The notes under the pieces were generated by a model. That model saw only the letters and a list, made by a program, of their open reading frames with translations, was not told the DNA's origin and ran no database searches. Positions 2,301 through 27,004 of a stretch of DNA of 64,000 nucleotides are shown here, piece after piece. The position numbers were made by a program, and so were the translations under genes. The stretch lies in NCBI GenBank assembly GCA_964016885.1, contig OZ024743.1:335544001-335608000 (forward strand), in the 5' to 3' direction. Each line of letters opens with the position of its first letter. Position 1 is the first letter of the stretch. Origin of the DNA: Eledone cirrhosa. Taxonomy: Eukaryota.

Positions 2301-2391
2301 TAAAAATAATCATTTCAAATAAAATTTCAAACTGGCACCATTCCAAACTACCTCAGATTGAGAGTAAATTAATGATAAAGCAGTTATTGGA

Positions 2392-3925
2392 ATGGTACCG
2401 TGTGCAAAAGCGAGAGCACGGTGGACGGATCGGTTAAATTGCTCGGGGTCTGGTTCGGACCGGACCTCCAGATGGAGCAAAATTGGAGCGAGGTGACGAG
2501 CACGGTGGCCTCCCTCACCCAGAAATGGGCCGAGAGGAAGCTGTCCCTGAAAGGCGGGCGGAGATGGCGAATGCGTACATCGCATCCTTCATCTACTACC
2601 GCCTCACCGTCGTCCCTTGCTCCGGCCCAACTCTCACCAAAATGGAGCGCCTCCTCTTCCGCTTTTTGTGGAAGGGACGCGCTCCCATGGTCAGACGATC
2701 CATCTGCTGTCAACACCCGTTGCGTGGAGGACGGGGCATGCCATGGCTGATGATGCGCAAACATGCGCTAAGGCTGCGACATCTCTGGTGCTTCCTTGAT
2801 GGTGAACAGGTGTGGTCGCCGTTCGTCAGGCACGTTTTCCTACAGCTCGTCTCCTTGACGGAGCTGCAGTCCTGGGTCAGAAAAAAACCGAGGGATAGCG
2901 CTTGGAAACTGGAATGTCTCCAGGCGCTCACTGCCCTCTGCCAGCTGGGCACCTGTATCGGTGGAACATCCACCTCAGCGTTCTATAGAAGACTAGTGGA
3001 GGGGAGAGCGACGACGTTCTTGGAGAGATCCTGGGCGTCGAAGAAGATCAGGCGTTTGCTCTCTTCCGGAGAACTTTCAGCCCAGGGCCTATGGATAACT
3101 TCCTAAAATCACTGGCCTGGCAGTGCTACTGGGGAGCGCTGCCGGTTCGAGATAAGATCTACAGGAACGGAAGTGCCGTCAGCCGAGCCTGTCCGAGATG
3201 CGCGCTGAGCGATGAAACCGTCGTGCACGCACTCATTCAGTGCCCGAGCATTGCTGACTTGTGCAGCTATGTCGCGACAGTTGCTGTCGCGTGTAGGACT
3301 GATCCGGTTGTCGACTGAGTCCATTGTGCAGATGGTCGCGCCGTCTTCCTTCGAGGAGGTAGGGCAGGCGGTTTTCATCTGCCTGGTAGCCATGGCGAAA
3401 GAGATTGTGTGGTGGACAAGGTTAAAAGGGTTAAAGACAGACAGTTTCTTAATCGGCGAATCCCTAATTAACTTTTTCAGATTTCACTTGAAGAGGAAAA
3501 TCAGGGTGGAGAGGCAAGTGCTGCCTTCTAGCAAGTTTGTTGAAATCTGGGTGCATGTAGCGAGAATGGTCCGAGTGAACGGGACCACTCTGAATATACG
3601 TCTGTAGTTTGAGAGATGGAAAAATTGAGAGAGGGCGCTTGCCCTGGTGGTCAGGGTGGCCGTTGTGTTTTGTGTGGTTTTCGCCACGACTAACCCTCGG
3701 AGGTTTCCCCCCTATTGGGGAATTTTTCATTGTTTCAATTTTCATTTTTATTGTTTATATATATATATGTTTCTATGTCCTTTTTTTTTCTTTTCTTATA
3801 TAAATAATAAGAATATTTACACGCAAAAACCCACATCGTACCGTCCTGTACCGTCCTGTGCCGTCTGTAATGTTTTTCTTTATGTCAGCCCTTGTGGCTA
3901 ATAAAGAAATCATTATTATTATTAT
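2392..3925 (+). mobile_element. 5'-truncated, frameshifted Tx1/L1-clade LINE (ORF2 C-terminus + 3'UTR)
   Basis: ORF pieces 2400-3607 match the C-terminus of the intact ORF2s (DGSVKLLGVWFGPDLQ, CPRC..ETVVHALIQC); AATAAA then (TAT)n tail. Confidence 0.9.
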
Positions 3926-4073
3926 TTTTTATTACATCCTCTGTTTTTTTTTTACACGCTGAAATGCCCATTTGTACCGTCCTGTATTGTCCTGTACTTT
4001 CCTTAATGTCTACTTTATGTAAACCCTTGTGGTTAATAAAGAAAACATTATTATTATTATTATTGTTATTATT
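3926..4073 (+). mobile_element. Very short 3'UTR-only insertion of the Tx1 A/C family
   Basis: TTACATCCTCTG...GAAATGCCCATTTGTACCGTCC...GTGGTTAATAAAG(TAT)n near-identical to 13470-13610 and 25310-25480. Confidence 0.8.
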
Positions 4074-7000
4074 CTTTGAGTCTTAGTCATTGATGTTAGT
4101 CAACTGGAAAGTTTGTTGAGATGAATATCAAGCCACTACCTGCAGCCTCAGATATTCAGGACGTATCCGAGGGTTCTTGCTGTTCCCAGCAAGCATGCCT
4201 TTTGAAGCGTTCCAAAAAGCGTGATGAGGCCAATTTTCTTCAACCATCCCTGGAAACTTTTTGAGATAGTCCCTAGTGAGCCTCTGACAATCGGGATCAC
4301 TTTGACTTAATGGCAGTTCCAAATCCTTTTTACATTCCCACTTTAAGTCCTGGTATCGGTTAATTTTCTCCCTCTCCTTCTCTTGCACTCTCGTGTCGAA
4401 TGGGCAGGCCACATCCACAATCAGGCACGATCTTTTTTCTTTGTCCAAAACCACCAGGTCAGGTCTATTGTGTTCCAGTTTCTTGTCCGTCTGTATCCTA
4501 AAATCCCACAGCACCTTCACCTGATCGTTTTCTATCACCGCCTCTGGCTTATGCTCATACCACTTCTCAGAATGTGGTAAATTGTTTACTTTGCATAGGT
4601 GCAAGTGGATCACCCTGCCCATCACATCATGTCTCCAGCCCTTATAGTGAGTCTGGGCTAGGTGTTTACACTCGTATACAATGTGAGCCACAATCTCCTC
4701 TCTCTCTCCACATATCCTGCACATTAGGCTAGCCTCCTCCTTGTAAATGTGGTGTTTCAACCACTTCGTTTTGAGGGCCTGCTCCTGCGCAGCCATTAAC
4801 AGTCCTTCTGTAGCCTTTTTAAGGTCTCCTCTTTTCAACCAGTTCCATGTCTGTGGATCTCTAAATTCAGTTTTCTCAAAGAAGGTACTATGAAGGGATT
4901 TTTCCTGAAGGCTGCTCTTTCTCCTTGATGTTATTTCCTCCTTGGACATCCCCTGGCCTATTGTCCTCTCCTTCAGTACAGCTCTGAGCATTGGCTCCTT
5001 ACTATCAGTCACGTATTTGTGTAGGTTGCTTTTCTCCATCTGAACACAGTCCTCTATGCTGATAAACCTCTTACAGCCTCAGATCTCCTTAAGTAGAGTC
5101 TATCGACATCACTCCTCTTGTGGAACATATTTCGATAGTCAATAGCTTCCTCGTCTTCCTATCCATTTCTTTTTGTTCAGCAACATTCCATCTCAGAATT
5201 CCCGCACTGTACCTAATAATAGACACATCTCGGGAATTTACTGCACTTATGGCATTCCTACTGTTCAGATGTGACTTTAATACGCTCCTTACTCTCCGAA
5301 GGTATTCAGTTCTTATAAATTCCTTCATTTTTTTTGTTCTTGATGTCATCTGCCTCCAGAATACCCAAATACTTGTATCCTTCTTCAGAGTCAATTTCTT
5401 TTATCATCTCACCTGTTGGTATCTGGATTCCGTTACTTCTGCTCAACTTACCCTTCCTCATCACAATGACTCCACACTTACTAATACCAAATTGCATACA
5501 TATATCATTGCTGAAAATACGGACAGTGTCAACAAGCACATCCAACTCCTTCTCACTCTTCCCGAAGAGCTTAAGATCGTCCATGAAGAGGAGGTGATTG
5601 ATGGTAAGCCCTCCCTTTCCCAACCTGTATCCTGCTCTCACTTTTCGCAGTACACTGGTCAGGGGTATCAGGGAAAGGACAAACAACAGAGGGGACAGAC
5701 TATCTCCCTGGAAGATACCTCTCTTGATCTTCACGCTTCCCAAAGATTCTCCAGATGTTAACTCTGTTTCACAGGACTTCATACTTTTGCCCAACAACTG
5801 CCTGATGTTATCTGCCACCTTGAAGATCTCCAGGCTTTTGGTGATCCAAGAATGAGGCACCATGTCAAATGCCTTTTTGTAGTCTATGTATCCCATGGCA
5901 AGACCAGTGTGTCTCCTCTTGCAATTCCTCATTACCATCTTATCAATAAGTAACTGGTCCGTTGTACCACGTGACTTCTTTCGGCATCCTTTCTGTTCGT
6001 CCGGTAACAAGTTGTTTGTGTGGAGGTGATGGTAGATTTCCTCTGACATAATGCTTGTCAATAGTTTCCACATTACGGACAGACATGTGATAGGTCTATA
6101 GTTGGTAACATCATTACCCTTGATTCGGTCTTTCATTATCAGAACTGTGGTACCTTTTGTCAACCACTCTGGTACCTCACCTGACATCAAGCAGTCATTG
6201 AACATGGTTGTCAGTTTCGGGTGGAGGGATGTTATGTTTTTAATCCAATACCCCTGCACACCATCTGGGCCAGGTGATTTCCAGTTGGTTAGTTTTTTGG
6301 TCTGCCCCTTAAGAGTTTCAACTGTGATACTCAAATCAGTTTGTTGGCGTGCCTGTTCACTGATCTCCTTCTGTACTGTCTCAATCCACACTGCCTGGTC
6401 ATTATGTTTAACATCCTGCTCCCATATTCCTCTCCAGAATGTTTTAGTTTGTTCCGCCTCAGGGATCAAGTCGTTGCCTCTTTCTTTCCCTTCAAGCTGT
6501 CCAAACAGCATCTTCTGGTTGTTGTTGAACATGCGGTTCTGTCTATACTGGCTGACTCTGTTCTCGTATCGCCTGATTTTTGCACTTTTTGCTACAATGC
6601 GTTGCTTCAGTTCCTCTATGATAATATTTAGCTTTTTCCTCCTAGTTTTGTACTTTATTTCCAGTCTATTTTTAGTGTCTATGTTTTTTAGTGTCCCATT
6701 CAGTAGGGACTCAAGCTTTCCAATGTCATTTCTCATTTCCCTGATTTGACCACCCAGTCGTTTCTTCCACCAAGGCTCTGCTCTTTCTTGTCTGTTGTTT
6801 CCTCTCTCTTTTATACCAAGTAGTTTCCTCACCGTATTTGCTGTTGCTTTGAGGATATTGTTGCACTGGTGAAGGCTCTTCGCCTCAAGGTATGGGATGA
6901 CTTTGTTTACATTAGCTGTTGTTTCTTTTAACTTTTTCCTGTCTACAAATCTTAGGTTCATAGGTCTCCCACTATCATTGTTCAATTCATCTACCACTAA

Positions 7001-7630
7001 GTTTAGGATATCTACCAAATCTTGTCCTAGCCCGTCAGCATTCATCTCCTCAGTGGCCGTATCTCTGTTCCAGGTATTATTTATCTCAGCATTCAGATCA
7101 TTGTCTGTTTCGGGTGGTTCCTCCATTCTCTCGACCTCTTCACCTTCATTTCCCACTGGCTCGTTTGCCTGGCACACTCCACCCTCCATCTCCAAGCTAA
7201 TCTCCCTGCCCAGTTCCTCCAGATCCAGCTCGCTTATCCACCCATTAGTACTTATTACCCGAGCCTGCCCGGCCAGTTTTTGTTCATCTAATTTAAATGG
7301 ACCAATCTCGTTCCAGATGTTATGCATTCTTTTCCTATAGCCTTTCTCCTTGGGGTTACTCTTCAGGTAACATTGCATAACAGTTCTATTCAATTCTTTC
7401 GTCCAGTTGGTTCTGGTCCCTTTCCTTCTTCTTCTTCCTCCGACACCAGCAGTATTTGTTTGACAGCCAGGTACCTGCTGCTGAGCCAGGGAGCACCTGT
7501 TGTGTGAGAGTCTGTCACATGACATTCTAGTCTCCATTTCACCGTTATTCGAAATGTTTAGGTTCGACATTTAAACACTCTTATCGAGGATTGGCGAATG
7601 TATGGTTACATAACCACCGGTGAATTACTT

Positions 7631-7632
<2 letters not shown>
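4074..7632 (-). mobile_element. R4/Dong-clade non-LTR retrotransposon (single ORF, RT + CCHC + restriction-like endonuclease), frameshifted
   Basis: GIFQGDSLSPLLF and HLLFMDD RT motifs; CRICGEREEIVAHIVYEC, RHD, RPDLVVLD..LIVDV..EK (PD-D/ExK); (TAA)n on both flanks. Confidence 0.9.
4128..7570 (-). pseudogene. Dong/R4 RT-RLE ORF broken into pieces (5306-7570, 5089-5394, 4128-5039)
   Basis: Collinear ORF fragments in different frames. Confidence 0.85.

Positions 7633-7674
<42 letters not shown>
7633..7674. repeat. (TAT)n microsatellite between Dong and Tx1 element A
   Basis: Direct trinucleotide run. Confidence 0.95.
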
Positions 7675-7882
7675 GGCGACCTACGTAGTAAATCGTATCA
7701 TCGTGAGCTCCGCAAAGGTTTGTTATTTCCGTTTGTTAAAAATTGTCATTTATGGAAAATTTTATTGTTAACTGTTTGTAAGCGCACATACATTGTTTTC
7801 CGAAAAGGACACCCAAAAAGATTGGGGCCTTGTGCCCAAAATTTAAACTTTTATTATTACCAAAAAATTTCTTTGAAAAAAA

Positions 7883-9871
7883 ATGGCTAATTCACCTCTG
7901 CACGAAGCAGCTGAAAGCCTTCCTCACAAATTAACACCTCACACCGACACCACCATTGTAAATGTTACTACGTTTGCCAACACAAAAAAAAATATAAGCA
8001 CTAGCAATATTTTAAATTTGTCTCAGGCAGACATTCATTTCCCGCCATTACCAATGACTGCAGGTGTTAAAGCCTCCACCACCACCACCACCGCGACAAC
8101 CACCACCACCACCACCACCACCACCGCGACAACAGAAACAAAAGAAGAAAAAAATAAATTAACTCGTGATGTCGAAATGAAATCAAGCAAAATGGACTCT
8201 TCCCCAGCAAAGACGACTGACGTTACCACCACCACAACTGAAACTAAAATTAATATTAACGATAGCAACAACAACAACAATGACATTATAAAACCCCCCC
8301 TCAGTTTCACCAGAGTAGCAAAACAGTTCGAAGCATTTACGGTAACTCAGGAGGATTTAGAAAATGCCAAACAAATGGTAAAAAAAGATCGGTACAGGGT
8401 CAGCCCCCCCCCCACCTAATAAAATAGAGCATCGGCGCCTATGCACCGTGTCGTATAGAACAATAAATGTAAAATCGCGCCTAGTGGAACGGGCATCCGA
8501 GTCCCAAATCCAAAAAGCTTTGGGACATGTGTGGGCAAGAAAAACCCACATCAGACGTGGGCCAAAGTATGGAACCGTGGACGTGTTCTTTGAAACACCA
8601 GAGGAGGCTAGAGAACACTCCATGGCCCCATTAAGAAGTGACGACTTCACACTCGTCCCAAGCTATTGTGGCCAGAGACTCGTAAAGATCAGGGTGACCC
8701 ACGTTCCACCGGCCTTCGAAATTCCCTGGCTAATAGCGGCCGTCCTCGCCGGCATCGAAGCCAACACGAAAATAATAGCAATAGCAAAAGAAAAGCAGGA
8801 GAACTGGTCCGGATCTGGGATGGAGCTCCTGATCCAAGCGGACCAAAAAAGCATTGAGGAGATCCCAGAGGTAATAGACCTCACTGACGGCAGCCACCTC
8901 ACGGTAATTGTCGAGGGCAGAAGACCTAGGTGTGTCGTTTGTGGTGAAGGAACACACCTAAGGGCTTTCTGCCCTCAGGTAAAAGGTTGAGGCCACCTCT
9001 CCTACCCACCCCAGTGACACAACCATCAACACCACCAGTAGCAGAGATGGCAGCAACAACTGTAGCAGCAACAACAGAAGCAAATGTAACAGAAACAACC
9101 CCAGCAACAGTAGCAAAACCAACACCACAACCACCAACAGCAAAACCAACACCACCACCACCCAACGCTTCAGAACTAGCACCAGCGCCTACACCATCCA
9201 CCACGCCACAACCAAAACTAACGGCTGTGGAGGATTTTCCACTCCCCGGCCTATCACAACTGGAGACAGATTGTGACGACGAGGAGTGGGAAACGATATC
9301 CGGTAAAAAAAAAAGAAACCAAAAAAGAAAAAATTCTCTTCCATCCCCCTCAAAAAACAAAATACAGAGGGAAACAAATAAATTAAGAAACAAAAAAGTT
9401 AGGATAGATATGCCACCATCCACACCAGCATCACCAACCCCATCAATCCAAACACCAACACCATCACCATCATTAACCCCAACACCACCATCACCTACAC
9501 CACAAAAGTCACCAAAATGCGAAACAGAAACAAACCCACAACAAACGCAAACAAAACAAAACAACCAAAACGATACACACTACACAGCATTAAATTTGAA
9601 CAACAAGCAATTATTACACTACATCCAACACAACACCAGCATCACAGAAAAAGACTACACAACAACCCCAAAATTCACACCACCTCCACACATACAAATC
9701 ACTCGCATCACACAGAAAACGTACATGACACTAAAACAAAAATTCCCCAAAGACATCGGAGACTTCCGACAAGCACTCTCCAGGAGGATTTATAAGGAAA
9801 TCCTTCCTGAGGAGGCCACAAGCAGTGAAAAGGATGGAAAAACCGTCCTTCCCCTACGACAAGTAAGGTAA
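7883..9871 (+). pseudogene. Element A ORF1 (CCHC zinc knuckle, Pro/Thr-rich), frameshifted
   Basis: Pieces 7883-8419, 8448-8990 (CVVCGEGTHLRAFC), 8987-9871; homologous to ORF1 of element C. Confidence 0.85.
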
Positions 9872-9905
9872 GTGGTCTTTCCCATCTTTTCCACTCCTTT
9901 TCAAC

Positions 9906-12900
9906 ATGACCTCACTCAGAATAGGCAGCATAAATGCGCGTGGCTTGGGGTCGTCATGGAAGCAGGGCCACCTGCTCAACGACCTCAGGTCACTAAACAT
10001 AGATGTAGTGGCCATCAGCGAGACCAGAATCTCCGAAGCACAGGCTTTCGCACCGATCTTCGGCGGCTACGATGTGTACGCATCTCCCAGCCATCCGGGA
10101 TCGGGGGGAGGAGTTGCTGTGCTTTTTCGGAGAGGTTTGGATCTTGCCATACGAGCCATCTTCCTGGACCCAGAAGGTAAGTTGGTGGTGCTGGACGTGA
10201 CCAGCGGAGACGGGCAAGCTTTCAGGTTAGTGGCCGTCTATGCCCCGACAGGAGCAGGGCGGTCTGATTTCTTCCGGCGTCTGGAGACCTTTCTTGGAAC
10301 GTCCCGCTCTTTAGTGTTAGTGGGCGATTGGAACGGGATCTTAGATGCACGCTGGGATTGTGTGGGATAATTGGATAGGGAAGGAGGGTGCAAGAGTCTC
10401 ACCAACCTGCTCAGACGTTTTGAACTGTCTGACACGTACCGAATGGATTTCCCGAATGTACCAATGTGGACTTGGACAAATCGCATAGGGTCATCCAGAT
10501 CATATCTAGATAGAGTATTTTGTAGGGAAATAGATAGGTCTAGCATAGGCTGTCCACAATTCAAGATAGTCAGCTACACGGACCACAAATTCGTGATCTG
10601 TGTGCTTGACTTAGATAGGCTTCATAGACGAGGACCCGGCTACTGGAAGCTAAACGCGTCCTTACCAGCGCTAAGGTCCTACAGAGACCGGATTAGCGAA
10701 CTAGTTAAGCGGACGTTGACGGGGGCCATCGTCAACAACAAGTGGTGGTTTGCTCTGAAAATAGCAATTAGAATATAGTCCATTAGGTTTAGTAAGACTT
10801 TAGCAATAGAGAAAAATAGAGCAGAGGGAGAATTAGTTAGAAAATTAGATGAGGCGCTTAGCAAAGGCATCGCGACCGACGTACTTGCGGCGAAATTGGC
10901 CCTTGACCAATTCTTCAATGCAAAGCACGAAGGCTGCGTTGTCAGAGCTAGGGTGCGTGCTCTCAGACACGAGGGTACGAAAGCCGTTCAATGGGCCCGA
11001 GTGGCGGAGGCGCGTCGTGGCAACAAAGCCACGATCCGGTCTTTGGTGGACCACGACGGGCGCATGCTACTCGATCCCGGGCAAATGTGTGAAGCTTTTC
11101 AGCGACACTTCGCTCAACTGTTCGGGGGCAGTGGCGGGCCGGATCGAGGGATGGTCTTTAGAGTCTACCTCGACGGACTGCCGCGGCTTTCGGCCACTGA
11201 GGCGGAGTGTTGCGAAAAGCCGATAACAACCGCTGAAGTACGGGATGCAATGACTAGTTGCACAAGGGGTAAATCGCCTGGTTTGGATGGTCTGCCCTAT
11301 GAACTTTACGTACAAATGCCAAACCTGTTCGGAGGCCTCTTGGCGGACGTCTACTGCAACTGGCAACAGAACGGGAGAATTCCCAGCTCCGTGAGCCGAG
11401 GAGCGGTGGCGCTGCTGAGAAAGAATCCAAACAAGGGGGATAACATAGATAATTTTAGGCCCATAACTCTGCTAAACACAGAGTTCAAGATTTTGGCCAA
11501 GGTGCTAGCAAAGAGGTCGGCGCTTGTCGTTGGTGGTCTGGTGGGAGAGGCACAGACATGCGCCATTCCCGACAGATCCATCCACGACAACCTCCACCTC
11601 ATGCGATACAACGTAGAGAGGGTAGCTAGGGAACCTGGCAGGGGTGGATCTTTGATCAATTTAGATCAGTCGAAAGCTTTCGATAGGGTCGACCATCGTT
11701 ACCTAGCGGCCGTCCTGAGGGCGGCTGGCTTTGGGCCCGTCTTCAGAGGCTGGATCGCTGCCATGCACAGCGACATCTGCTCTGTGGTGAGAGTGAACGG
11801 TCACCTGTCGGAACCGTTCAACATCATGCGCTCGGTCCGCCAAGGATGTCCCCTCTCGTCCCTCTTGTACGTATTGACTCTCGAGCCATTACTGCACAAA
11901 CTGGAGACGTTGAGGGGAGTCCCGCGCGAACTAGGATGCGGAAGATCTGTGTCAGCATATGCGGACGATGTCACCGTAGTGGTGTCGAGCGCCAAACACA
12001 TCGAGGCGATCGGCACTACACTAAGAGAATACGAAGCGGTGACAGGAGCAATGATCAACCAGGAAAAGTCAGTGGGCCTGCAGCTCGGCACCTGGAGAGG
12101 CAGGTCCATGCCGTCCAACAGCGTCGTCGGGCGCTGGACAGACGGACCGGTTAAATTGCTAGGGGTCTGGTTCGGTCCAGACCTCCAGACAGACAAAAAC
12201 TGGAACGAGGTGACGAGCAGGGTGGCTTCTCTCACCCAGAAATGGGCTGAGAGGAAGCTATCCCTGAAAGGTCGAGCGGAGGTGGCTAACGCGTACATCG
12301 CGTCCGTCATCTGCTACCGCCTGACCGTCGTACCTTGTCCTAAGCCTCGCCTGACTGCGCTGGAGCGTTTGCTCTTTCGCTTTTTGTGGAAGGGACGCGC
12401 TCCGATGGTCAGGCGGTCCATCTGTTGTCAACACCCGCTACGTGGAGGGCTGGGCATGCCGTGGCTGATGATGCGCAGGCACGCGCTCAGGCTACGACAT
12501 CTCCACCTCTTCCTCGACGGTGATCAGGTGTGGTCGCCGTTTGCTAGGCGCGTGTTTCCCCAGCTCGTTTCCTTGACGGAGCTGCAGTCCTGGGTCAAGC
12601 GAAGACCGAGAGGGAGCGCCTGGAGACTGGAATGTCTTCAGGCGCTCACAGCCCTCGACCAATCGGGCAATGTGATCGGTGGAAACTCCACCTCGGCGTT
12701 CTATAGAGGATTAGTGGAGGGGAAGAGCGACGACGTACTTGGGGAAACTCTAGGCGTCGACGAAAATCAACTAGCCAATCTCTTCGGAAGAACTTTCGGG
12801 CCAGGGCCTATGGACAACTTCCAGAAATCTCTGGCCTGGCAGTGCTACCGAGGAGCCTTGCCAGTTCGGGATAAACTCTACAGGCATGGAGGTGCCGTCA

Positions 12901-13325
12901 GCCGGGCATGTCCGAGATGCGTGCAGGGCGACGAAACCGTCCTGCACGCACTCGTCCAGTGTCCGAGCATTGCTGACTTGTGGGTTTATGTCGAACACCT
13001 GCTGTCGCGTTTAGGACGGATCCGGCTATCATCTGAATCCATCGTGAGGATTGCCCCGCCCTCCTCCTTTAGCCGGGAAGGGCAGGCAGTTTTTATCTGT
13101 CTGGTGGCCATGGCGAAAGAGATAGTATGGTGGACACGTTTGAAAGGGCTGAAGACGAGCACTTACCTCTTCGGTGATGCTCTGATTGACTTTTTCTCAT
13201 TTCATTTGAAAAGGAAAATCAGAGTAGAGAGGGAAGTGCTCTCTTCCCAGCATTTTGTTGAAAGATGGGTGAGAGAAGCAAGAATGGCCCGAGTGAATGG
13301 GCCTACTCTGAGTATATATCTGTAA
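9906..13325 (+). pseudogene. Element A ORF2 (APE endonuclease-RT-CCHC) with two in-frame stops
   Basis: Stops at 10368-10370 and 10776-10778 in one frame; otherwise near-identical to 21745-25164. Confidence 0.9.
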
Positions 13326-13819
13326 ATTAAAGGTGGAAAACTGGGAGAGGGCACTTGCCTTGGTGGTCAGGGGCATTGTGGCTTTTTACTGGGCTTTCTC
13401 CACAAATGTCCCTCCGAAGTCTCCCCCCTATTGGGGAATTTATCATTGTTATTTTCATTGTTATTTTTGTTACATCCTCTGTTTTTGTTTTTTACACGCA
13501 GAAATGCCCATTTGTACCGTCCTGCATTGTCCTGCACTGTCCTTAATGTCTACTTTATGTAAACCCTTGTGGTTAATAAAGAAATCATTATTATTATTAT
13601 TATTATTATTGACGAAAGTGGATGTACGTTTTTTGAAGCTCCGTGAGTAAGCAATTTTTGAGGATTAATTGTAGAGAATTGTTTATTTTTTGTACCGCTG
13701 AAGCATTATAAGACATTAATTTGTATCCTGTGAAGGAATAACTCATAATATTTGGGCCTTTTGGCCCAAATATTTGAACTTTATTTTGAAAAAAATAATA
13801 ATTTTTTTCTCAAAAAAAC

Positions 13820-15682: not shown

Positions 15683-15711
15683 ACCTTTCCTCTCCCATTC
15701 ATCCTGCCAGC

Positions 15712-18700
15712 ATGGCCATAAGAGTAGGAAGTTTAAATGTTCGTGGCCTGGGGTCGCCCTGGAAGCAAGGTCACTTGCTCAACGACCTCAGGTCACTAGG
15801 AATGGATGTAATTGCCATCAGCGAGACCAGAATTTCCGACACACGCGCACTGGCGCCGATTTTCGACGATTATCAGATCTTTGCATCTGTTAGTCGGCCG
15901 GGAATGGGAGGTGGAGTGGCTGTGCTGTTTAGGAAATGTCTGGATCTCGAGGTAAGGTCAATCTTCCGGGATCCTGACGGAAAGTTGGTGGTCCTGGACG
16001 TGAGCAATAGCGAAGGTGGTGCCTTTAGACTGGTGGCCGTCTACGCCCCTACTGGGGCCGGTCGGCCGGACTTCTTTAGGCGCCTGGAAAACTTTCTGCT
16101 TACGTCTCGCCCTTTACTGTTAATAGGGGATTGGAATGGCATCTTAGAAGCACGCTGGGATTGTGTGGGAGTATCTGATAGGAGCGGGGGGTGCAAAAGC
16201 CTCAAGTACCTGATCAGCCAGTTTCAACTGTCTGACAGGTACCGACTAGATTTCCCTAATGCGCCAGTATGGACCTGGACCAATCGCATAGGGTCATCTA
16301 GATCGTACATAGATAGGATTTTCATTAGGAAAAGAGATAGAAATAGTGTAGGATGTCCACATTTTAAAACGGTTGCCTATTCAGATCACAAGCTTGTGAT
16401 CTGTATGGTCGACCTAGATAAGACACGTAGGTTAGGACCTAGCTACTGGAAGCTAAACATGTCGTTTCCGGCACGTAAAGCTTACAGGGACCGGGTCAAC
16501 AACTTAGTTAAGCAAAAGTTGACAGGGGGGGTTGTCAACAACAGGTGGTGGGGGGCACTCAAAAGAGAGATTAGAGCAACCTCGATAGGATTTAGCAAAG
16601 AAGTAGCAATAGAGAAAAATAGAAAGGAGGAGGGGCTGATAGCTAAGTTAGACGAGGCTATTTGTAGTGGCATTGCAACAGACGTGCTAGCGGCGAGAAT
16701 GGCACTAGACCATTTCTTCAATGCGAAACACGAAGGTTGCATTGTCAGAGCTAAGGCGCGTGCTCTGAGGAACGAGGGAACCAAAGCTGCCCGATGGGCT
16801 CGCTTTGCAGAGACGCAGCGTGGAAATAAAACCACAATTCGGTCTTTGACGGATCGAGATGGACACGAACTGAGCGATTCCAAGCGGATGTGTGAGGCCT
16901 TTCGCCAGCACTTTGCTCGATTGTTCGGGAGGATGGGTGAGTCGGAGATGGCGGCGGACTTCAGTCCCTACCTCGACGGCTTGCCACGCCTCTCGACGGC
17001 CGACGCTGAGCGCTGCGAAGAGCCGATAACATCAGCCGAAATTCAGGACGCCCTTGTCGGCTGCTCGAGTCGCAAGTCACCCGGTTTGGATGGTCTGCCC
17101 TACGAGCTTTACGTAAATATGCCAGACTTGTTCTCCGATCTCCTCGAAGCGCTCTACTGCAACTGGCAGCAGAACGGGAGCATTCCCAGTTCTGTGAGCC
17201 GTGGCGTAGTGACGCTGATAAGGAAAGACGAGAACAAGAGGGACACACTAGATAATTTCAGGCCCATAACCCTGCTCAACACAGAGTTTAAGATTTTGGC
17301 CAAGGTGTTAGCGAAAAGGTTGGCGCTTGTCGTCAAAGATTTGGTTGGGGAGGCGCAAACTTGCGCAATCCCGACCAGGTCCATACACGACAACCTCCAC
17401 CTCATGCGATACATCATAGAGAGGGTTGGGTGCAAACCTGGCTTCGGTGGGGCTCTGATCAATTTAGATCAATCGAAAGCATTCGATAGGGTCGACCATC
17501 GGTACTTGGAGGCTGTCCTCGAGGCGGCTGGCTTCGGCCCCGTCTTCAGAAGCTGGATCGCTGCAATGTACAGCGGCATCCGCTCGGTGGTCAAAGTTAA
17601 TGGCCACCTCTCGGAACCGTTTCAGATCTCTCGATCGGTCCGTCAAGGGTGCCCTCTCTCCTCACTTCTGTACGTATTGACTCTTGAGCCTCTACTGCGG
17701 AAGCTGGAGTTGTTGCAGGGCATCCCGCTCGAACCGGGACGTAGAAAGGCTGCGTCCGCTTATGCGGACGACATCACCGTGATGGTGTCGGACACCTCGG
17801 AAATCGAGGTGATCCGCACCCATTTGGAGGAATATGAAAGGTTGACGGGAGCAAAACTTAACCCGGAAAAGTCGGTGGGCTTGCAGCTCGGCACCTGGAG
17901 AGGCAAGTCCATGCCGTCCAACAGCGTCGTTGGGCGCTGGACAGACGGACCGGTAAAGTTGCTCGGGGTTTGGTTCGGACCAGACCTCCAGGTGGATAAG
18001 AATTGGGACGAGGTGACGAGCAGGATAGCCAACCTCACCCAGAAATGGGCTGAGAGAAAGCTATCACTGAAAGGGCGGGCGGAGGTGGCGAACGCGTACA
18101 TCGCGTCCGTCATCTACTACCGCCTGACCGTCGTGCCTTGCCCCCGTCCACGCCTCGCCAATTTGGAACGGCTCCTTTTCAAATTTTTGTGGAGGGGACG
18201 GGTCCCGTTGGTGAGGCGGTCCATCTGCTGCCAGCACCCTCTTCGTGGAGGGCTGGGCATGCCGTGGCTAATGATGCGCAGACATGCGCTGAGGCTGCGA
18301 CATCTCCAGATATTTTGCCTAAACGGTGAACAGGTGTGGTCGCCGTTTGTTAGACGGGCCTTTCCGCAGCTCATCTCTTTGACTGAGCTGCAGTCCTGGG
18401 TCAAGAAGAGACCGAGACTGGGCGACTGGCATCTGGAATGTTGCCAGGCGCTCACTGCACTCTGCAAGGTGGGCAATGCGGTCAGTGGAACTTCCACTCA
18501 AGATTTCTATAGAGGATTAGTGGAGGGCAAGTGCGATGACGTACTAGGAGAGGCTCTGGGCGTCAACGAAGTAGAACTGACCAGTATGTTCCGGAGGACT
18601 TTCGAGCCGGGGACGATGGATAACTTCCAGAAATCCCTCGCTTGGCAGTGCTACCGGGGGGCGCTGCCGGTTCGGGATAAACTCTACAGGCACGGAAGTG

Positions 18701-19131
18701 CTGTCAGACGAACCTGCCCGAGATGCGCGCAGAGCGACGAAACCGTTCTGCACGCACTCGTCCAGTGTCCGTGCATTGCTGACTTGTGGGGTTATGTCGA
18801 ACAGCTATTGTCGCGTGTAGAACGGATCCGGCTATCGTCCGAGTCCATAGTGAAGATTGACCCGCCGCCTTCTTTTGGTCAGGAAGGGCAGGCAATTTTC
18901 CTCTGCCTGGTGGCAGTAGCGAAAGAGGTTGCATGGTGGACCAGGTTGAAAGGACTGAAGACAGACACTTTTCTCTTCGGCCAATCCCTCATCAACTTCT
19001 TCAAGTTTCACTTGGAAAGGAAGGTGAGGGTGGAGAGAGAAGTGCTGCCCCCCAGTACATTTACTGAAAGGTGGGTGAATGTGGCGAGAATGGCCCGCGT
19101 GAGTGGGCCTACTCTGATCATGCGCCTGTAG
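15712..19131 (+). CDS. LINE ORF2p, 1139 aa, APE endonuclease + RT + C-terminal CCHC
   Basis: SLNVRGL, ISET, GDWN, SYIDR, SDH; QGCPLS, YADD; CPRC..H..C. Confidence 0.95.
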   Translation: MAIRVGSLNVRGLGSPWKQGHLLNDLRSLGMDVIAISETRISDTRALAPIFDDYQIFASVSRPGMGGGVAVLFRKCLDLEVRSIFRDPDGKLVVLDVSNSEGGAFRLVAVYAPTGAGRPDFFRRLENFLLTSRPLLLIGDWNGILEARWDCVGVSDRSGGCKSLKYLISQFQLSDRYRLDFPNAPVWTWTNRIGSSRSYIDRIFIRKRDRNSVGCPHFKTVAYSDHKLVICMVDLDKTRRLGPSYWKLNMSFPARKAYRDRVNNLVKQKLTGGVVNNRWWGALKREIRATSIGFSKEVAIEKNRKEEGLIAKLDEAICSGIATDVLAARMALDHFFNAKHEGCIVRAKARALRNEGTKAARWARFAETQRGNKTTIRSLTDRDGHELSDSKRMCEAFRQHFARLFGRMGESEMAADFSPYLDGLPRLSTADAERCEEPITSAEIQDALVGCSSRKSPGLDGLPYELYVNMPDLFSDLLEALYCNWQQNGSIPSSVSRGVVTLIRKDENKRDTLDNFRPITLLNTEFKILAKVLAKRLALVVKDLVGEAQTCAIPTRSIHDNLHLMRYIIERVGCKPGFGGALINLDQSKAFDRVDHRYLEAVLEAAGFGPVFRSWIAAMYSGIRSVVKVNGHLSEPFQISRSVRQGCPLSSLLYVLTLEPLLRKLELLQGIPLEPGRRKAASAYADDITVMVSDTSEIEVIRTHLEEYERLTGAKLNPEKSVGLQLGTWRGKSMPSNSVVGRWTDGPVKLLGVWFGPDLQVDKNWDEVTSRIANLTQKWAERKLSLKGRAEVANAYIASVIYYRLTVVPCPRPRLANLERLLFKFLWRGRVPLVRRSICCQHPLRGGLGMPWLMMRRHALRLRHLQIFCLNGEQVWSPFVRRAFPQLISLTELQSWVKKRPRLGDWHLECCQALTALCKVGNAVSGTSTQDFYRGLVEGKCDDVLGEALGVNEVELTSMFRRTFEPGTMDNFQKSLAWQCYRGALPVRDKLYRHGSAVRRTCPRCAQSDETVLHALVQCPCIADLWGYVEQLLSRVERIRLSSESIVKIDPPPSFGQEGQAIFLCLVAVAKEVAWWTRLKGLKTDTFLFGQSLINFFKFHLERKVRVEREVLPPSTFTERWVNVARMARVSGPTLIMRL

Positions 19132-19615
19132 GCTGGTGAATTCGAGAAGGAGAGGGGTGCCCTTCCCGGGTGCCCTAGGAGCGTCGGGTGGCTCAGGACT
19201 GGTGGGGTGCTTGAGTCAACCCTGGGTGGTGATCCCTCTTATTGGGGAACTTTCATTGTTGTATTTTTATTGTTATTTTGTTTTTTTGTTATTTATACTT
19301 ACTCGATCTCTATGTAAACCCCCACTGTCCCTGTCTATTGTGTTGTCCCCTATATGTCGGCCCTTGTGGCCAATAAATGAAATCATTATTATTATTATTA
19401 TTGAATGCCATGGTTGACGGAGGCTCGGCTCTGTAAGGTATAGTAATTTTTAACCGTTAAAACAATTGTAAATTGTTTAAAACTTGAACCAAATTGTTGA
19501 TAAAGACACCCTCCTCCTCGTGAGAGGGGTCTTTCTGTCCGTTATTTGGCCCTTCGGGGTTAAATAACCAGTTATTGGGGTTTTGTACCCAAAATTTCAT
19601 TTTAAACAAAAAAAC

Positions 19616-21709
19616 ATGGCTACCAAAAAGAAATTTCATACGTCACTCCCACTCATTCCGTCTTCTTCTTCCTCAATCATCACTACAGCAGAGAGAAGAT
19701 TGTCTCTCTCCCTCCCTTCTTTAAATGTGTCTCTCTCCCTCCCTTCTCTTTCGCAAGTGACGAAAGAAAAGAAAAGTCTCGTGCAAAGCGTGCAAGGTTT
19801 CTCCACGACGACGACGACAGCGACGAAACAGGTGTGCGGGAAATACGAAAACCCAGTTCATTCGTCTGACGTCAGGAATAATAGCAGTAGCAGCCGTAAT
19901 AACAACAGCAACAGTGACAATGAAAACAACAGTAGCAGCCGCAACAGCATCACCAGCAGCATAAACAACAACAGCATTAGCAGCAGCAACACCAACAACA
20001 ACCACAGCAACAGCGGCGGAGGCAGTAGTCGTAGTACCTGCAGCAACAACAAAAGTACCAGCAGCTCTGACGAAAACAACAGCAGAGAAAAACCAATCTC
20101 ATTTGCAGGTATTGCGAAAAACTTGGAAACAATCCTCATAACAAATGAGGAATTAGAGGAAGCGAAGAAGATGGTGACAAAGAACGGACACCGAGCAATC
20201 TGCAAGGCAGCGAAAAATTTTTTCGAAACCCAAGAGCACTGTACGGTCACGTACCGTACAGTAAGTACAAAATCCCGTAGGGTGGAAAGAGCCACAGAGG
20301 CCCAAATACAAAAAGCCTTGGGGTCTGTGTGGCAGCGGAAAACGCACATCACCCGAGGCAAAAAATATGCCACCGTAGACGTACTTTTTGCCACACCCCA
20401 GGAGGCAAAGGCCCAATCAGTAGTGACCCTAAGGAGCGAGGAAATGGTGTTGGTGCCCTCCTACTGTGGGCAAAAAATTGTGAGGGTCAAACTGACCCAC
20501 GTCCCCCCCGGAATGACCCCTTCTTGGCTGGCCGCGTCTGTCCTCGTCGGAATCGAGGACAAAACAACTGTACTGCAAGTACAGAAAAAAGTAAGAGAAG
20601 ATTGGTTCGGCTCCTCCATTGAGATGCTAATCCAAACCAACCAGGAGTGCATCGAAGCTATCCCGGATGTGATAGACTTCGATAACGGCACTCAACTGCC
20701 CATAAGTGTTGAGGGCAAACGCCCGAAATGCTTTCGCTGTGGATCGAAGACTCACCTCAGGGCCTTCTGCAACGAGAAGACCCTGAGAAAGGAGAAAACC
20801 CCCCTCCTTCCGAATCCGGCTCCACGGCTACCAGCAACAGGACAAGCGGCAACCAGGAACGATAGGCCCGTGGCACCCATACCCACTCCACGGAAATCAA
20901 AAACAGCAGCAGCAGTGGAAATACTAACAACAACAACAGCAATACCAAATGCAGCTGCAACAGAGACTCCAGTGCAAACATCACCAACAACAACAAGTGA
21001 AAGAGTGGAGTTGGTACCCCTCCCCGACCTCACAGAATCAGACATGGAGTGTGAGGTGGGAGAGAGATGGCAAAAGGTCGTAAGAAGGCACAAACGCAGA
21101 AGCAGCGCATCGTCGCCTTTGAAAAGGGAGGAAAGAAATGAGAAAAGGGTAAAGTCTACTGCAAAGAGACCCACAGCAGCAACAACACCAACACCATCAC
21201 CACCCACACTAGCGCCACCATCACCACCGGCGACAACCCCACCGCCAACAACACCTTCAACACCACCACCACAAGCACCAACATCGCAAACACAACAACA
21301 AAACACACACACCCAGCCACAACGACAAGAAAATAGCAGAACCACACCCCACCCCCAGAAAAACAAATGCACGGCAATAAATACACACAACAAGAAACTA
21401 ATGACTTACATAATTGAACACACAGACATTTCACAACAGGACTACATAATACCAGCACCAATCAAAACGCCAACTAACATAAGACTGCTAAAAATAGCAC
21501 AGAAACAATACACAAATATTAAAACGAAATTCCCCAACGCAGTTGGTGATTTCAGGGACCTAGGAGGAACCATCAATCGAAGAGTATACTCAGACATTCT
21601 CTTAGAAGAGCCGACGACCAGCCGAAGGGACGATTCAACGGTCCCTTCACCAGACGATCAAGTGAAAAGGGATGTAAAAACCATCCCTCCTCTACCAAAA
21701 GTACGGTAA
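19616..21709 (+). CDS. LINE ORF1p with CCHC zinc knuckle (likely start at ATG 19616)
   Basis: CFRCGSKTHLRAFC; homologous to ORF1 of A and B. Confidence 0.88.
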   Translation: MATKKKFHTSLPLIPSSSSSIITTAERRLSLSLPSLNVSLSLPSLSQVTKEKKSLVQSVQGFSTTTTTATKQVCGKYENPVHSSDVRNNSSSSRNNNSNSDNENNSSSRNSITSSINNNSISSSNTNNNHSNSGGGSSRSTCSNNKSTSSSDENNSREKPISFAGIAKNLETILITNEELEEAKKMVTKNGHRAICKAAKNFFETQEHCTVTYRTVSTKSRRVERATEAQIQKALGSVWQRKTHITRGKKYATVDVLFATPQEAKAQSVVTLRSEEMVLVPSYCGQKIVRVKLTHVPPGMTPSWLAASVLVGIEDKTTVLQVQKKVREDWFGSSIEMLIQTNQECIEAIPDVIDFDNGTQLPISVEGKRPKCFRCGSKTHLRAFCNEKTLRKEKTPLLPNPAPRLPATGQAATRNDRPVAPIPTPRKSKTAAAVEILTTTTAIPNAAATETPVQTSPTTTSERVELVPLPDLTESDMECEVGERWQKVVRRHKRRSSASSPLKREERNEKRVKSTAKRPTAATTPTPSPPTLAPPSPPATTPPPTTPSTPPPQAPTSQTQQQNTHTQPQRQENSRTTPHPQKNKCTAINTHNKKLMTYIIEHTDISQQDYIIPAPIKTPTNIRLLKIAQKQYTNIKTKFPNAVGDFRDLGGTINRRVYSDILLEEPTTSRRDDSTVPSPDDQVKRDVKTIPPLPKVR

Positions 21710-21744
21710 GTGGTCTTTCCCATCTTTTCCACTCTATTTTAAAC

Positions 21745-24700
21745 ATGACCTCACTCAGAATAGGCAGCATAAATGCGCGTGGCTTGGGGTCGTCATGGAA
21801 GCAGGGTCACCTGCTCAACGACCTCAGGTCACTAAACATAGATGTAGTGGCCATCAGCGAGACCAGAATCTCCGAAGCACGGGCCTTCGCACCGATCTTC
21901 GGCGGCTACGATGTGTACGCATCTCCCAGCCGTCCTGGATCCGGTGGAGGAGTTGCTGTACTTTTTCGGAGAGGTTTGGATCTCGCCATACGGGCCATCT
22001 TCCTGGACCCAGAGGGTAAGCTGGTGGTGCTGGACGTGACCAGCGGAGAAGGGCAAGCTTTCAGGCTAGTGGCCGTCTATGCCCCGACAGGAGCAGGGCG
22101 GCCTGATTTCTTCCGGCGTCTGGAGACCTTTCTTGGAACGTCGCGCTCTTTAGTGTTAGTGGGCGACTGGAACGGGATCTTAGATGCACGCTGGGACTGT
22201 GTGGGATTAGCGGATAGGGGTGGAGGGTGCAAGAGCCTCACCAACCTGCTCAGGCGTTTTGAACTGTCTGACAGGTACCGATTGGATTTCCCGAATGTGT
22301 CAATGTGGACTTGGACAAACCGCATAGGGTCATCCAGATCATATCTAGATAGAGTATTTTGTAGGGAAATAGATAGGTCTAGCATAGGCTGTCCACAATT
22401 CAAGATAGTCAGCTACACGGACCACAAATTCGTGACCTGTGTGCTTGACTTAGATAGGCTTCATAGACGAGGACCCGGCTACTGGAAGCTAAACGCGTCC
22501 TTACCAGCGCGCAAGGCCTACAGAGACCGGATTAGCGAACTAGTTAAGCGGGCGTTGACGGGGGCCATCGTCAACAACAAGTGGTGGTTTGCTCTGAAAA
22601 GAGCGATTAGAATAGAATCGATTAGGTTTAGTAAGGCTTTAGCAATAGAGAAAAATAGAGCAGAGGGAGAACTAGTTAGAAAATTAGACGAGGCGCTTAG
22701 CAAAGGCATTGCGACCGACGTGCTTGCGGCGAAATTGGCCCTTGACCAATTCTTCAATGCAAAGCACGAAGGCTGCGTTGTCAGAGCTAGGGTGCGTGCT
22801 CTCAGACACGAGGGGACGAAAGCCGTTCAATGGGCCCGAGTGGCGGAGGCGCGTCGTGGCAACAAAGCCACGATCCGGTCTTTGGTGGACCACGACGGGC
22901 GCATGCTACTCGATCCCGGGCAAATGTGTGAAGCTTTTCAGCGACACTTCGCTCAGCTGTTCGGGGGCAGCGGGGGGCCGGGTAGAGGGATGGACTTTAG
23001 TGTCTACCTCGACGGACTGCCGCGGCTCTCGGCCACTGAGGCGAGGTGTTGCGAAAAGCCGATAACAGCCGCTGAAGTACGGGAGGCAATGACTGGCTGC
23101 ACAAGGGGTAAATCGCCTGGTTTGGATGGTCTGCCCTATGAACTTTACGTACAGATGCCAGACTTGTTCGGAGGCCTCTTGGCGGACGTCTACTGCAACT
23201 GGCAACAGAACGGGAGAATTCCCAGTTCTGTGAGCCGAGGAGCGGTGGCACTGCTGAGAAAGGATCCGAACAAGGGGGATAACATAGAAAATTTCCGGCC
23301 CATAACTCTGCTAAACACAGAGTTTAAGATTTTGGCCAAGGTGCTAGCAAAGAGGTTGGCGCTTGTCGTTGGTGGTCTGGTGGGAGAGGCGCAGACATGC
23401 GCCATTCCCGACAGATCCATCCACGACAACCTCCACCTCATGCGATACATCGTAGAGAGGGTAGCTAGGGAACCTGGCACGGGTGGGTCCTTGATCAATT
23501 TAGATCAGTCGAAAGCTTTCGATAGGGTCGACCATCGTTACCTAGCGGCAGTCCTGAGGGCGGCTGGCTTTGGGCCCGTCTTCAGAGGCTGGATCGCTGC
23601 CATGCACAGCGACATCTGCTCTGTGGTGAGAGTGAACGGTCACCTGTCGGAACCGTTCAACATCATGCGCTCGGTCCGCCAAGGATGTCCCCTCTCGTCC
23701 CTCTTGTACGTATTGACTCTCGAGCCATTACTGCACAAACTGGAGACGTTGAGGGGGGTCCCGCGCGAACTAGGATGCGGAAGATCCGTGTCAGCATATG
23801 CGGACGATGTCACCGTAGTGGTGTCGAACGCCAAACACATCGAGGCGATCGGCACTACACTAAGAGAATACGAAGCGGTGACAGGAGCAATGATCAACCA
23901 GGAAAAGTCAGTGGGCCTGCAGCTCGGCACCTGGAGAGGCAGGTCCATGCCGTCCAACAGCGTCGTCGGGCGCTGGACGGACGGACCGGTTAAATTGCTA
24001 GGGGTCTGGTTCGGTCCGGACCTCCAGACGGACAAAAACTGGGACGAGGTGACGAGCAGGGTGGCTTCTCTCACCCAGAAATGGGCGGAGAGGAAGCTAT
24101 CCCTGAAAGGTCGAGCGGAGGTGGCTAACGCGTACATCGCGTCTGTCATCTGCTACCGCCTAACCGTCGTACCTTGTCCTAAGCCTCGCCTGACTGCGCT
24201 GGAGCGTTTGCTCTTTCGCTTTTTGTGGAAGGGACGTGCTCCGATGGTCAGGCGGTCCATCTGTTGTCAACACCCGCTACGTGGAGGGCTGGGCATGCCG
24301 TGGCTGATGATGCGCAGGCACGCGCTCAGGCTACGACATCTCCACCTCTTCCTCGACGGTGATCAGGTGTGGTCGCCGTTTGCTAGACGCGTTTTTCCCC
24401 AGCTCGTTTCCTTGACGGAGCTGCAGTCCTGGGTCAAGCGAAGACCGAGAGGGAGCGCCTGGAGACTGGAATGTCTTCAGGCGCTCACAGCCCTCGACCA
24501 ATCGGGCAATGTGATCGGTGGAAACTCCACCTCGGCGTTCTATAGAGGATTAGTGGAGGGGAAGAGCGACGACGTACTTGGGGAAACTCTAGGCGTCGAC
24601 GAAAATCAACTAGCCAATCTCTTCGGAAGAACTTTCGGGCCAGGGCCTATGGACAACTTCCAGAAATCTCTGGCCTGGCAGTGCTACCGAGGAGCCTTGC

Positions 24701-25164
24701 CAGTTCGGGATAAACTCTACAGGCATGGAGGTGCCGTCAGCCGGGCATGTCCGAGATGCGCGCAGGGCGACGAAACCGTCCTGCACGCACTCGTCCAGTG
24801 TCCGAAAATTGCTGACTTGTGGGTTTATGTCGAACACCTGCTGTCGCGTTTAGGACGGATCCGGCTATCATCTGAGTCCATCGTGAGGATTGCCCCGCCC
24901 TCCTCCTTTAGCCGGGAAGGGCAGGCAGTTTTTATCTGCCTGGTGGCCATGGCGAAAGAGATAGTATGGTGGACACGTTTGAAAGGGCTGAAGACGAGCA
25001 CTTACCTCTTCGGTGATGCTCTGATTGACTTTTTCAAATTTCATTTGAAAAGGAAAATCAGAGTAGAGAGGGAAGTGCTCTCTTCCCAGCATTTTGTTGA
25101 AAGATGGGTGAGAGAAGCAAGAATGGCCCGAGTGAATGGGCCGACTCTGAGCATATATCTGTAA
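21745..25164 (+). CDS. LINE ORF2p, 1139 aa, APE endonuclease + RT + CCHC
   Basis: SINARGL, ISET, GDWN, YLDR, TDH; QGCPLS, YADD; CPRC..H..C. Confidence 0.95.
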   Translation: MTSLRIGSINARGLGSSWKQGHLLNDLRSLNIDVVAISETRISEARAFAPIFGGYDVYASPSRPGSGGGVAVLFRRGLDLAIRAIFLDPEGKLVVLDVTSGEGQAFRLVAVYAPTGAGRPDFFRRLETFLGTSRSLVLVGDWNGILDARWDCVGLADRGGGCKSLTNLLRRFELSDRYRLDFPNVSMWTWTNRIGSSRSYLDRVFCREIDRSSIGCPQFKIVSYTDHKFVTCVLDLDRLHRRGPGYWKLNASLPARKAYRDRISELVKRALTGAIVNNKWWFALKRAIRIESIRFSKALAIEKNRAEGELVRKLDEALSKGIATDVLAAKLALDQFFNAKHEGCVVRARVRALRHEGTKAVQWARVAEARRGNKATIRSLVDHDGRMLLDPGQMCEAFQRHFAQLFGGSGGPGRGMDFSVYLDGLPRLSATEARCCEKPITAAEVREAMTGCTRGKSPGLDGLPYELYVQMPDLFGGLLADVYCNWQQNGRIPSSVSRGAVALLRKDPNKGDNIENFRPITLLNTEFKILAKVLAKRLALVVGGLVGEAQTCAIPDRSIHDNLHLMRYIVERVAREPGTGGSLINLDQSKAFDRVDHRYLAAVLRAAGFGPVFRGWIAAMHSDICSVVRVNGHLSEPFNIMRSVRQGCPLSSLLYVLTLEPLLHKLETLRGVPRELGCGRSVSAYADDVTVVVSNAKHIEAIGTTLREYEAVTGAMINQEKSVGLQLGTWRGRSMPSNSVVGRWTDGPVKLLGVWFGPDLQTDKNWDEVTSRVASLTQKWAERKLSLKGRAEVANAYIASVICYRLTVVPCPKPRLTALERLLFRFLWKGRAPMVRRSICCQHPLRGGLGMPWLMMRRHALRLRHLHLFLDGDQVWSPFARRVFPQLVSLTELQSWVKRRPRGSAWRLECLQALTALDQSGNVIGGNSTSAFYRGLVEGKSDDVLGETLGVDENQLANLFGRTFGPGPMDNFQKSLAWQCYRGALPVRDKLYRHGGAVSRACPRCAQGDETVLHALVQCPKIADLWVYVEHLLSRLGRIRLSSESIVRIAPPSSFSREGQAVFICLVAMAKEIVWWTRLKGLKTSTYLFGDALIDFFKFHLKRKIRVEREVLSSQHFVERWVREARMARVNGPTLSIYL

Positions 25165-25424
25165 ATTAAAGGTGGAAAACTGGGAGAGGGCACTTGCCTT
25201 GGTGGTCAGGGTCATTGTGGCTTTTTACTGGGCTTTCTCCACAAATGTCCCTCCGAAGTCTCCCCCCTATTGGGGAATTTTTCATTGTTATTTTCATTGT
25301 TATTTTTGTTACATCCTCTGTTTTTGTTTTTTTACACGCAGAAATGCCCATTTGTACCGTCCTGCATTGTCCTGCACTGTCCTTAATGTCTACTTTATGT
25401 AAACCCTTGTGGTTAATAAAGAAA

Positions 25425-25480
<56 letters not shown>

Positions 25481-25489
25481 ATTATATAA

Positions 25490-25710
25490 AGACGGTGGAT
25501 TTGTAGTATCGGTAGAGCGTCGGAAAATATGCCTTGCAGCATATAGTTAAATGCCTTTACGCTCTGTGTTCAAATCTTACCGAGATTACCTTTGCCTTTC
25601 ATCCTCATGCGGTCGATAAAACAAAGCACAGTTATACACTGGGGTCGATTTTATCGACTATTCCTTCCCTCCAAATTGCCGGCCTAGTGCCTAAAAAGAA
25701 ACCAATAATT
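25490..25710 (+). mobile_element. SINE (probably tRNA-derived head)
   Basis: GGTAGAGC...GTTCAAATC boxes plus the shared core TTTGCCTTTCATCC..GGTCGATAAA. Confidence 0.7.
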
Positions 25711-26257: not shown

Positions 26258-26356
<99 letters not shown>

Positions 26357-26419
26357 AATACAGATTCAGCGAGAATCGCATTTTCAGCGGGTAGGAAAAG
26401 CGAAGCGAAACGCAAAAAC

Positions 26420-26459
<40 letters not shown>

Positions 26460-26543
26460 AAAGTTATATTTAAATTGTTGGGTTACAACTAGTAAATATT
26501 TATAACTGATATAAAAGCACTCAACAAGTATTTGGAGTATATT

Positions 26544-26919: not shown

Positions 26920-27004
26920 TATATATATATATATATATTTTACTTAAGGTAACCTATGGGCTGACTGCACAAAAGCCTTGGATGTTTATACAAAATTTGA
27001 ACTA

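Follow-up and report, generated by a model that had tools for sequence, protein, structure and literature searches.

Several families of long interspersed nuclear elements (LINEs) are known to insert into microsatellites. In teleosts, the Tx1-clade families Kibi and Koshi are specific for (TC)n and (TTC)n, respectively, and crocodilian Tx1 families lie in (TTCC)n or (TTTC)n (PMC4494074, PMC3812793). In insects, molluscs, and cnidarians, (TAA)n is the target of Dong, a member of the R4 clade (PMC7998251, PMC3812793). A single U2 site is shared by Keno and Utopia, and tandem insertions are known for SINEU-3 and Utopia (PMC4640811, PMC4494074). In Octopus vulgaris, L1-Tx1 (13 families, 421 insertions) and Dong-R4 (5 families, 1129 insertions) have recently been active or expanded, and the available annotation text names no target preference for either (PMC13282606, PMC8967140); the available part of PMC3747384 adds no target information. 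Here we describe, in a 64,000-nucleotide stretch of DNA from Eledone cirrhosa (hereafter the window), a chain of five L1/Tx1-type pieces on the plus strand and one Dong/R4-type element on the minus strand, joined through (ATT)n tracts. Most likely, this chain represents six stacked insertions built one by one: L1/Tx1-type families would target (ATT)n on one strand and in one phase, and a Dong/R4-type element would use it from the other strand.

Like Kibi, Koshi, and the crocodilian families, the plus-strand elements are L1-group LINEs with two open reading frames (ORFs), an apurinic/apyrimidinic endonuclease (APE), and a strong preference for a microsatellite. They differ from Kibi and Koshi in that the target is (ATT)n and not a pyrimidine repeat, the host is of invertebrate type, and there are thousands of full-length copies from at least four families; they work like Kibi and Koshi but belong to neither, the target being neither (TC)n nor (TTC)n. 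The minus-strand element shares with Dong a reverse transcriptase (RT), a restriction-like nuclease motif, and (TAA)n, read in the element's sense, at either end, whereas the other five pieces of the chain have an APE nuclease and lie on the opposite strand. Keno and Utopia provide a precedent for an APE-type Tx1 element and a restriction-like endonuclease (RLE) element on one target, and for tandems that arise as successive insertions around a duplicated target; here, in contrast, the shared target is a microsatellite, the two kinds of element face opposite ways, and the chains reach tens of kilobases. We found no ATT-targeting Tx1 element in the literature searched, which took in neither subscription papers nor Repbase Reports; further targets are listed in the PMC4494074 supplement. 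What is likely novel is (ATT)n as the target of APE-type microsatellite LINEs, such targeting behaviour itself being known from Kibi, Koshi, and Dong.

The chain and its right flank are arranged as follows (UTR, untranslated region; SINE, short interspersed nuclear element).

2423–3911, plus strand: E1, a 5'-truncated L1/Tx1-type LINE (end of ORF2 and 3' UTR) whose 5' junction lies outside an ATT tract and which is older than the inverted duplication described below
3912–3926, plus strand: (ATT)5 junction tract, present in the paralogue too
3927–4046, plus strand: E1b, the 3'-terminal 120 nt of an element of the E3/E5 lineage, 93–94% identical to the E3 and E5 3' ends and also in the paralogue
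4047–4073, plus strand: (ATT)6-GTT-(ATT)2 tract with one G interruption, the tail of E1b and 3' flank of D
4074–7631, minus strand: D, a Dong/R4-type LINE, probably full-length, with RT, CCHC knuckle, and PD-D..K restriction-like nuclease motif in a frameshifted ORF
7632–7674, plus strand: (TAT)14 tract from the 5' end of D to the 5' end of E3
7675–13586, plus strand: E3, a full-length L1/Tx1-type LINE with frameshifts in both ORFs; 5' UTR and ORF1 are its own, ORF2 and 3' UTR are 97% identical to E5
13587–13610, plus strand: (ATT)8 junction tract
13611–19384, plus strand: E4, an intact L1/Tx1-type LINE; ORF1 of 620 aa with a CCHC knuckle, ORF2 of 1139 aa with APE, RT, and zinc finger
19385–19402, plus strand: (ATT)6 junction tract
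19403–25426, plus strand: E5, an intact L1/Tx1-type LINE; ORF1 of 697 aa with a CCHC knuckle, ORF2 of 1139 aa
25427–25485, plus strand: (ATT)17 (25427–25477) and a short imperfect extension, the tail of E5 and right remnant of the original tract
25486–25712, plus strand: SINE-like element (so labelled from its anatomy) flanking the chain on the right, as at the paralogous empty site

An earlier note on this DNA had claimed a tract at each of six junctions, only repeat DNA between the elements, and co-oriented Tx1 copies. All six tracts are present, the DNA between elements is (ATT)n alone, and the five L1/Tx1-type pieces are all on the plus strand. The note had also begun the chain at 2392 with every junction in a tract, but it starts near 2423, at a left junction that has none. 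All neighbours in the chain belong to different families.

The evidence for targeting comes from sequence; it consists of the constant strand and phase in which full-length 5' junctions lie, an uninterrupted tract at a paralogue of the locus, and the intact ORFs of E4 and E5. In a genome-wide pattern search, ATTATTATT stood directly 5' of 1585 of the 1628 full-length E5 starts, in a single phase, against a background of 30 in 116,000 strand-positions (2.6e-4) in untargeted DNA. An in-phase ATT run preceded 149 of 150 sampled full-length starts (E5 89/90, E4 30/30, E3 30/30); these came from the top of the list of places, almost all on contig C1 and mostly in its first part, and include a few duplicated loci. 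For truncated copies, we took 60 3'-end loci, of which 29 extended beyond the 1.5 kb examined, 9 were rearranged and dropped, and 22 were scored. An ATT run of at least 8 was found at 9 of these 22 junctions and on the opposite strand at one, while 12 had none; the background was 0.6%. PMC4494074 uses one flank type in more than 20% of copies as its threshold for specificity, and the share of ATT flanks lies well above this in full-length (1585/1628 and 149/150) and truncated copies (9/22). Flanks of (CTT)n occurred only to the left of an ATT run or at 2 of the 22 truncated junctions.

Outside the tract, the 150 full-length starts met 55 Tx1 3' ends, 37 antisense RLE LINEs and one in sense, 14 SINE ends, and 43 other sequences, and this variety of neighbours indicates that the tracts pre-exist. 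For comparison, 30 generic ATT tracts, drawn from a genome-wide total of 67,123 left edges of this kind and representing one edge type only, adjoined 5 Tx1 tails, 2 RLE elements, 18 SINE ends, and 5 other sequences. LINE neighbours were thus enriched at full-length starts (93/150 versus 7/30, Fisher p = 1e-4; Tx1 alone, p = 0.036). Weighting by tract length, considered as the full cause of chains, predicts 24% Tx1, 22% RLE, and 47% SINE neighbours (30 tracts) as compared to the 37%, 25%, and 9% seen, and accounts for them only in part. Another short repeat with an (ATT)n end (L183, L186, L190, L192, L193, L197, L204, and L210) was found at 8 of the 30 generic tracts and among 2 of the 150 Tx1 neighbours.

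An inverted paralogue of the locus in the 10 kb left of the window consists of E1, a 15-nt tract, E1b, (ATT)19, and then directly the SINE; it has no D, E3, E4, or E5, and both flanks of the chain are matched in it without loss. The inverted duplication covers about 8 kb (L224, 10 kb left of the window, versus 2321–4076 and 25290–31625 in the window) and preserves the pre-insertion state. Its arms diverge by 2.55% over E1, while E4 differs from its nearest dispersed copy by 4 substitutions (0.07%) and E5 by 0.45%. Because both are far closer to dispersed copies than the arms are to each other, E4 and E5 are much younger than the duplication and were inserted after it, into an existing tract. 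The earlier note had proposed a microsatellite-specific (TTA)n lineage and expected genomic copies to have the repeat 5' in a fixed orientation, which the E5 starts and the sampled starts of the three families bear out; random 5' flanks with the repeat as a 3' tail only, which it had named as the opposite outcome, were not seen, since full-length starts are in phase and the empty site has a tract.

The target is likely to be renewed upon insertion, and the E4 and E5 families differ in their tails. In E4 (37 copies), the median 3' tract is 19 nt versus 23 nt on the 5' side, leaving no net tail, whereas in E5 (47 copies) it is 46 nt versus 24 nt, an excess that excludes pure target duplication as the source of the E5 3' tract. 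Junctions between E4 copies are 15 or 18 nt long, one E4 copy of 37 (L283) has an interrupted 18-nt duplication that begins immediately after its 3' end, and another (L279) matches a duplication by eye at 13 of 15 nt. We infer a target-site duplication of 15–18 nt that would be bounded by T/A steps on both strands, the positions of the nicks being predicted from these junctions. The lack of a net tail in E4 makes it likely that most of the regenerated target is target-site duplication. The earlier idea that the element's own 3' tail regenerates the target is amended accordingly, a net tail being seen only in E5.

In the mechanism that we propose, the APE endonuclease would nick a T/A step on the (AAT)n strand, and target-primed reverse transcription would begin at the 3' end of the element, aided by read-through AUU repeats. 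Slippage during reverse transcription would add some 20 nt to E5 but nothing to E4, with the second strand joined at a T/A step at a distance of 15–18 nt. One tract would become two with every insertion, and the reuse of long fresh tracts beside earlier LINEs would give rise to mixed head-to-tail chains.

Several observations weigh against targeted, stacked insertion. The left end of the chain (2423), where E1 begins, lacks an ATT tract, and 13 of the 22 unrearranged truncated junctions have no ATT run of at least 8 (7 of 9 in the E1 family). An exact and informative duplication was seen in only 1 of 37 E4 copies, and the three informative E5 cases of 47 (24, 39, and 59 nt) all adjoin a copy of the same family and may be tandem duplications. 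D and E3 differ from their nearest relatives by 3.5% (27 hits) and 1.9% (38 hits), respectively; these values do not place them after the duplication, and the paralogue may lack them because they were deleted there. The contrast between full-length starts (97% ATT-flanked) and truncated junctions (41%) would also be expected if base-pairing, and not the nuclease, sets the target: nicks of a loose, T/A-preferring L1 type would prime well on the (AUU)n-ended read-through RNA only in (AAT)n, and an AUU 5' leader would fix the phase. Short microhomology at truncated junctions agrees with this explanation, as does the strong polyadenylation-like AATAAA just before the element end, after which no poly(A) is inserted. 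We nevertheless consider it unlikely, as the 3' flanks of E4 copies L279 and u9 open on an interruption, suggesting that the 3' tract is target and not RNA, the constant 15- or 18-nt junctions fit two placed nicks, and published Tx1 specificity is ascribed to the endonuclease in PMC4494074.

Two other explanations were considered. Assembly of the chain through recombination between ATT tracts, or through deletion or mis-assembly between them, is very improbable, although inverted duplications are plentiful in the region and tandem duplication through tracts does occur (identical or near-identical same-family neighbours and a repeated unit of E5 and a Dong fragment, both described below): the window's neighbours come from different families, none is copied from the next, both flanks match the paralogue without loss, and similar mixed chains occur elsewhere. 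Least credible is the possibility that (ATT)n belongs to the elements' own RNA at either end and that they insert randomly, with the tracts as products. Such an origin would fit the ATT that follows all Tx1 3' ends and the 25 of 30 sampled ATT tracts that are retroelement ends, but the tract at the empty site largely refutes it; moreover, 107 of the 150 full-length starts are joined by the tract to the end of another LINE or of a SINE, and the compound microsatellite flanks and the interrupted duplication in L283 also argue for pre-existing targets.

Targeted insertion into (ATT)n can be combined with local duplication in arrays of a single family. On contig C1 (L211–L217, 423.36–423.42 Mb), ten full-length E4 copies stand head to tail, with younger copies 5' and all nine internal tracts 15 nt long. 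The copies fall into two clades, of which the younger one branches from within the dispersed copies, which excludes amplification of a single insertion; adjacent copies share private variants, which excludes ten independent insertions. The array is thus the product of at least two insertions and local duplication. In small E4 tandems, three of six are mutual nearest relatives (0, 1, and 9 differences) and three are not; identical or near-identical same-family neighbours were seen at L270/L271 (0 differences), L296/L297 (1), and u1/u2 (0). E5 tandems are mixed likewise, with 11 pairs at 0.27–1.27% and an all-pairs median of 1.06%, and a repeated unit of E5 and a Dong fragment was found. Recombination between tracts is therefore likely to be another way in which same-family arrays grow. 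Mixed-family chains comparable to the window's occur elsewhere in the genome, and the duplication route does not apply to the window chain, because its neighbours differ in family. The earlier picture of self-extending, multi-family head-to-tail arrays is retained for the sequential mixed chain, with the corrections that same-family arrays are formed partly by duplication and that D is unrelated and on the other strand.

E3, E4, and E5 encode an APE endonuclease, RT, and zinc finger, and Exo_endo_phos, RVT_1, and zf-RVT were matched in the ORF2 of E4 and E5 (Pfam). The best PDB match of E5 ORF2 is human L1 ORF2p (E 2.7e-53), with R2 at E 1.8e-21. All catalytic residues of the APE are present in E4 and E5; N, E, Y, D, N, and D align to the L1 endonuclease, and the DH motif was read in the translation. 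The ORF1 proteins of E4 and E5 have no Pfam match and carry a C-x2-C-x4-H-x4-C knuckle; a CCHC knuckle in ORF1 is a feature of Tx1-type elements. An ORF2 with N-terminal APE, RT, and C-terminal zinc finger, together with a separate upstream ORF1, places these elements in the L1 group (L1/Tx1). Their anatomy makes Tx1-clade membership likely; no named Tx1 reference was present among the 44 homologues or 10 clusters examined. The best PDB match of D is R2 (E 1.8e-27). An RT, a CCHC knuckle, and a PD-(D/E)xK-type motif were read in the translation of its frameshifted single ORF, no N-terminal zinc finger was seen there, and (TAA)n stands at both ends in its own sense. From its anatomy we take D to be of Dong/R4 type, and it is probably an ordinary member of that group.

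The families are abundant, and their ORFs have diverged unevenly. Exact pattern searches with element-end motifs gave 1628 genome copies for the E5 5' 24-mer, 2308 for the E3 5' 21-mer, 324 for the E4 5' 22-mer, 6537 for the E3/E5 3' end motif, 1632 for the E1 3' 23-mer, and 3859 for the D 3' 24-mer. E4 and E5 share 75% identity in ORF2 protein and 28% in ORF1. E3 and E5 are 97% identical from 9824 and 21661, respectively, to the end, and only about 50–60% over the 5' UTR and ORF1. Because other copies with an E3 start likewise run on into E5-type ORF2, this pattern points to an ORF1 swap at the family level or to fast ORF1 divergence. Both ORFs are kept in 21 of 60 examined E5 copies, and the two elements that the earlier note called intact do have unbroken ORF1 and ORF2 and are young. 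E5-like DNA, at a word share of at least 0.44, occurs in 13 sequencing runs (10 organisms, 9 studies), three of which were aligned and match its 5' part; there is no RNA run among those listed. Distinct LINE-like 5' ends lie directly after (ATT)n at L043, L155, L156, L164, L178, L278, and L285, so that more than four families have this target in common.

Dong-type 3' ends lie antisense in the same tracts, and 13 of 30 are beside a Tx1 tail. The tract has the (TAA)n orientation in the element's sense at 29 of 30 sampled D-type 3' ends, and at L330 the opposite one, as judged by eye. A second, Dong-like RLE family is antisense in the same tracts at L037, L075, and L084. An abundant SINE with (ATT)n flanks in the Tx1 orientation and a Tx1-like 3' end was seen in the window (25486–25712) and at L024, L194, L195, and L207–L209. 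ATT follows 32 of 40 SINE tails, AAT follows one, and neither follows seven; one SINE variant agrees with the final 22 nt of E1 at 18 positions. From these tails and the E1-like 3' end, the SINE is likely to be mobilised by Tx1-type elements.

Outside the chain, the window contains several other structures. A 19.4-kb palindrome at 31624–51053 has arms 96–98% identical, a triplicated centre, and an RT ORF at 34311–35261; its left end lies where the inverted duplication with the empty site stops (31625). A second palindrome, at 52552–58236, has a 2.2-kb spacer between 1.7-kb arms that are 99% identical. A weak GIY-YIG match at 56466–57101 (E 0.0036) suggests a Penelope-like element, and an 831-aa minus-strand frame at 53690–56185 has no Pfam match. 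Two small near-perfect palindromes lie at 26538–26925 and 27005–27365, and a fragment of a Mariner-type transposase helix-turn-helix at 29577–30200.

Tentatively, and with somewhat less than even confidence, a broader reading may be given. An APE-type LINE nuclease would cut both (ATT)n strands at T/A steps 15–18 nt apart and, with an opposite-strand Dong element and a Tx1-borrowing SINE, would make most (ATT)n microsatellites of the genome, a self-feeding niche in which families would diversify by swaps of 5' UTR and ORF1 on a shared ORF2. The paralogous empty site is a natural before and after of a single locus, and young, intact E4 and E5 with a simple repeat target make the gain of specificity by APE nucleases directly testable. 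The chain also illustrates how microsatellites and LINE chains could sustain one another.

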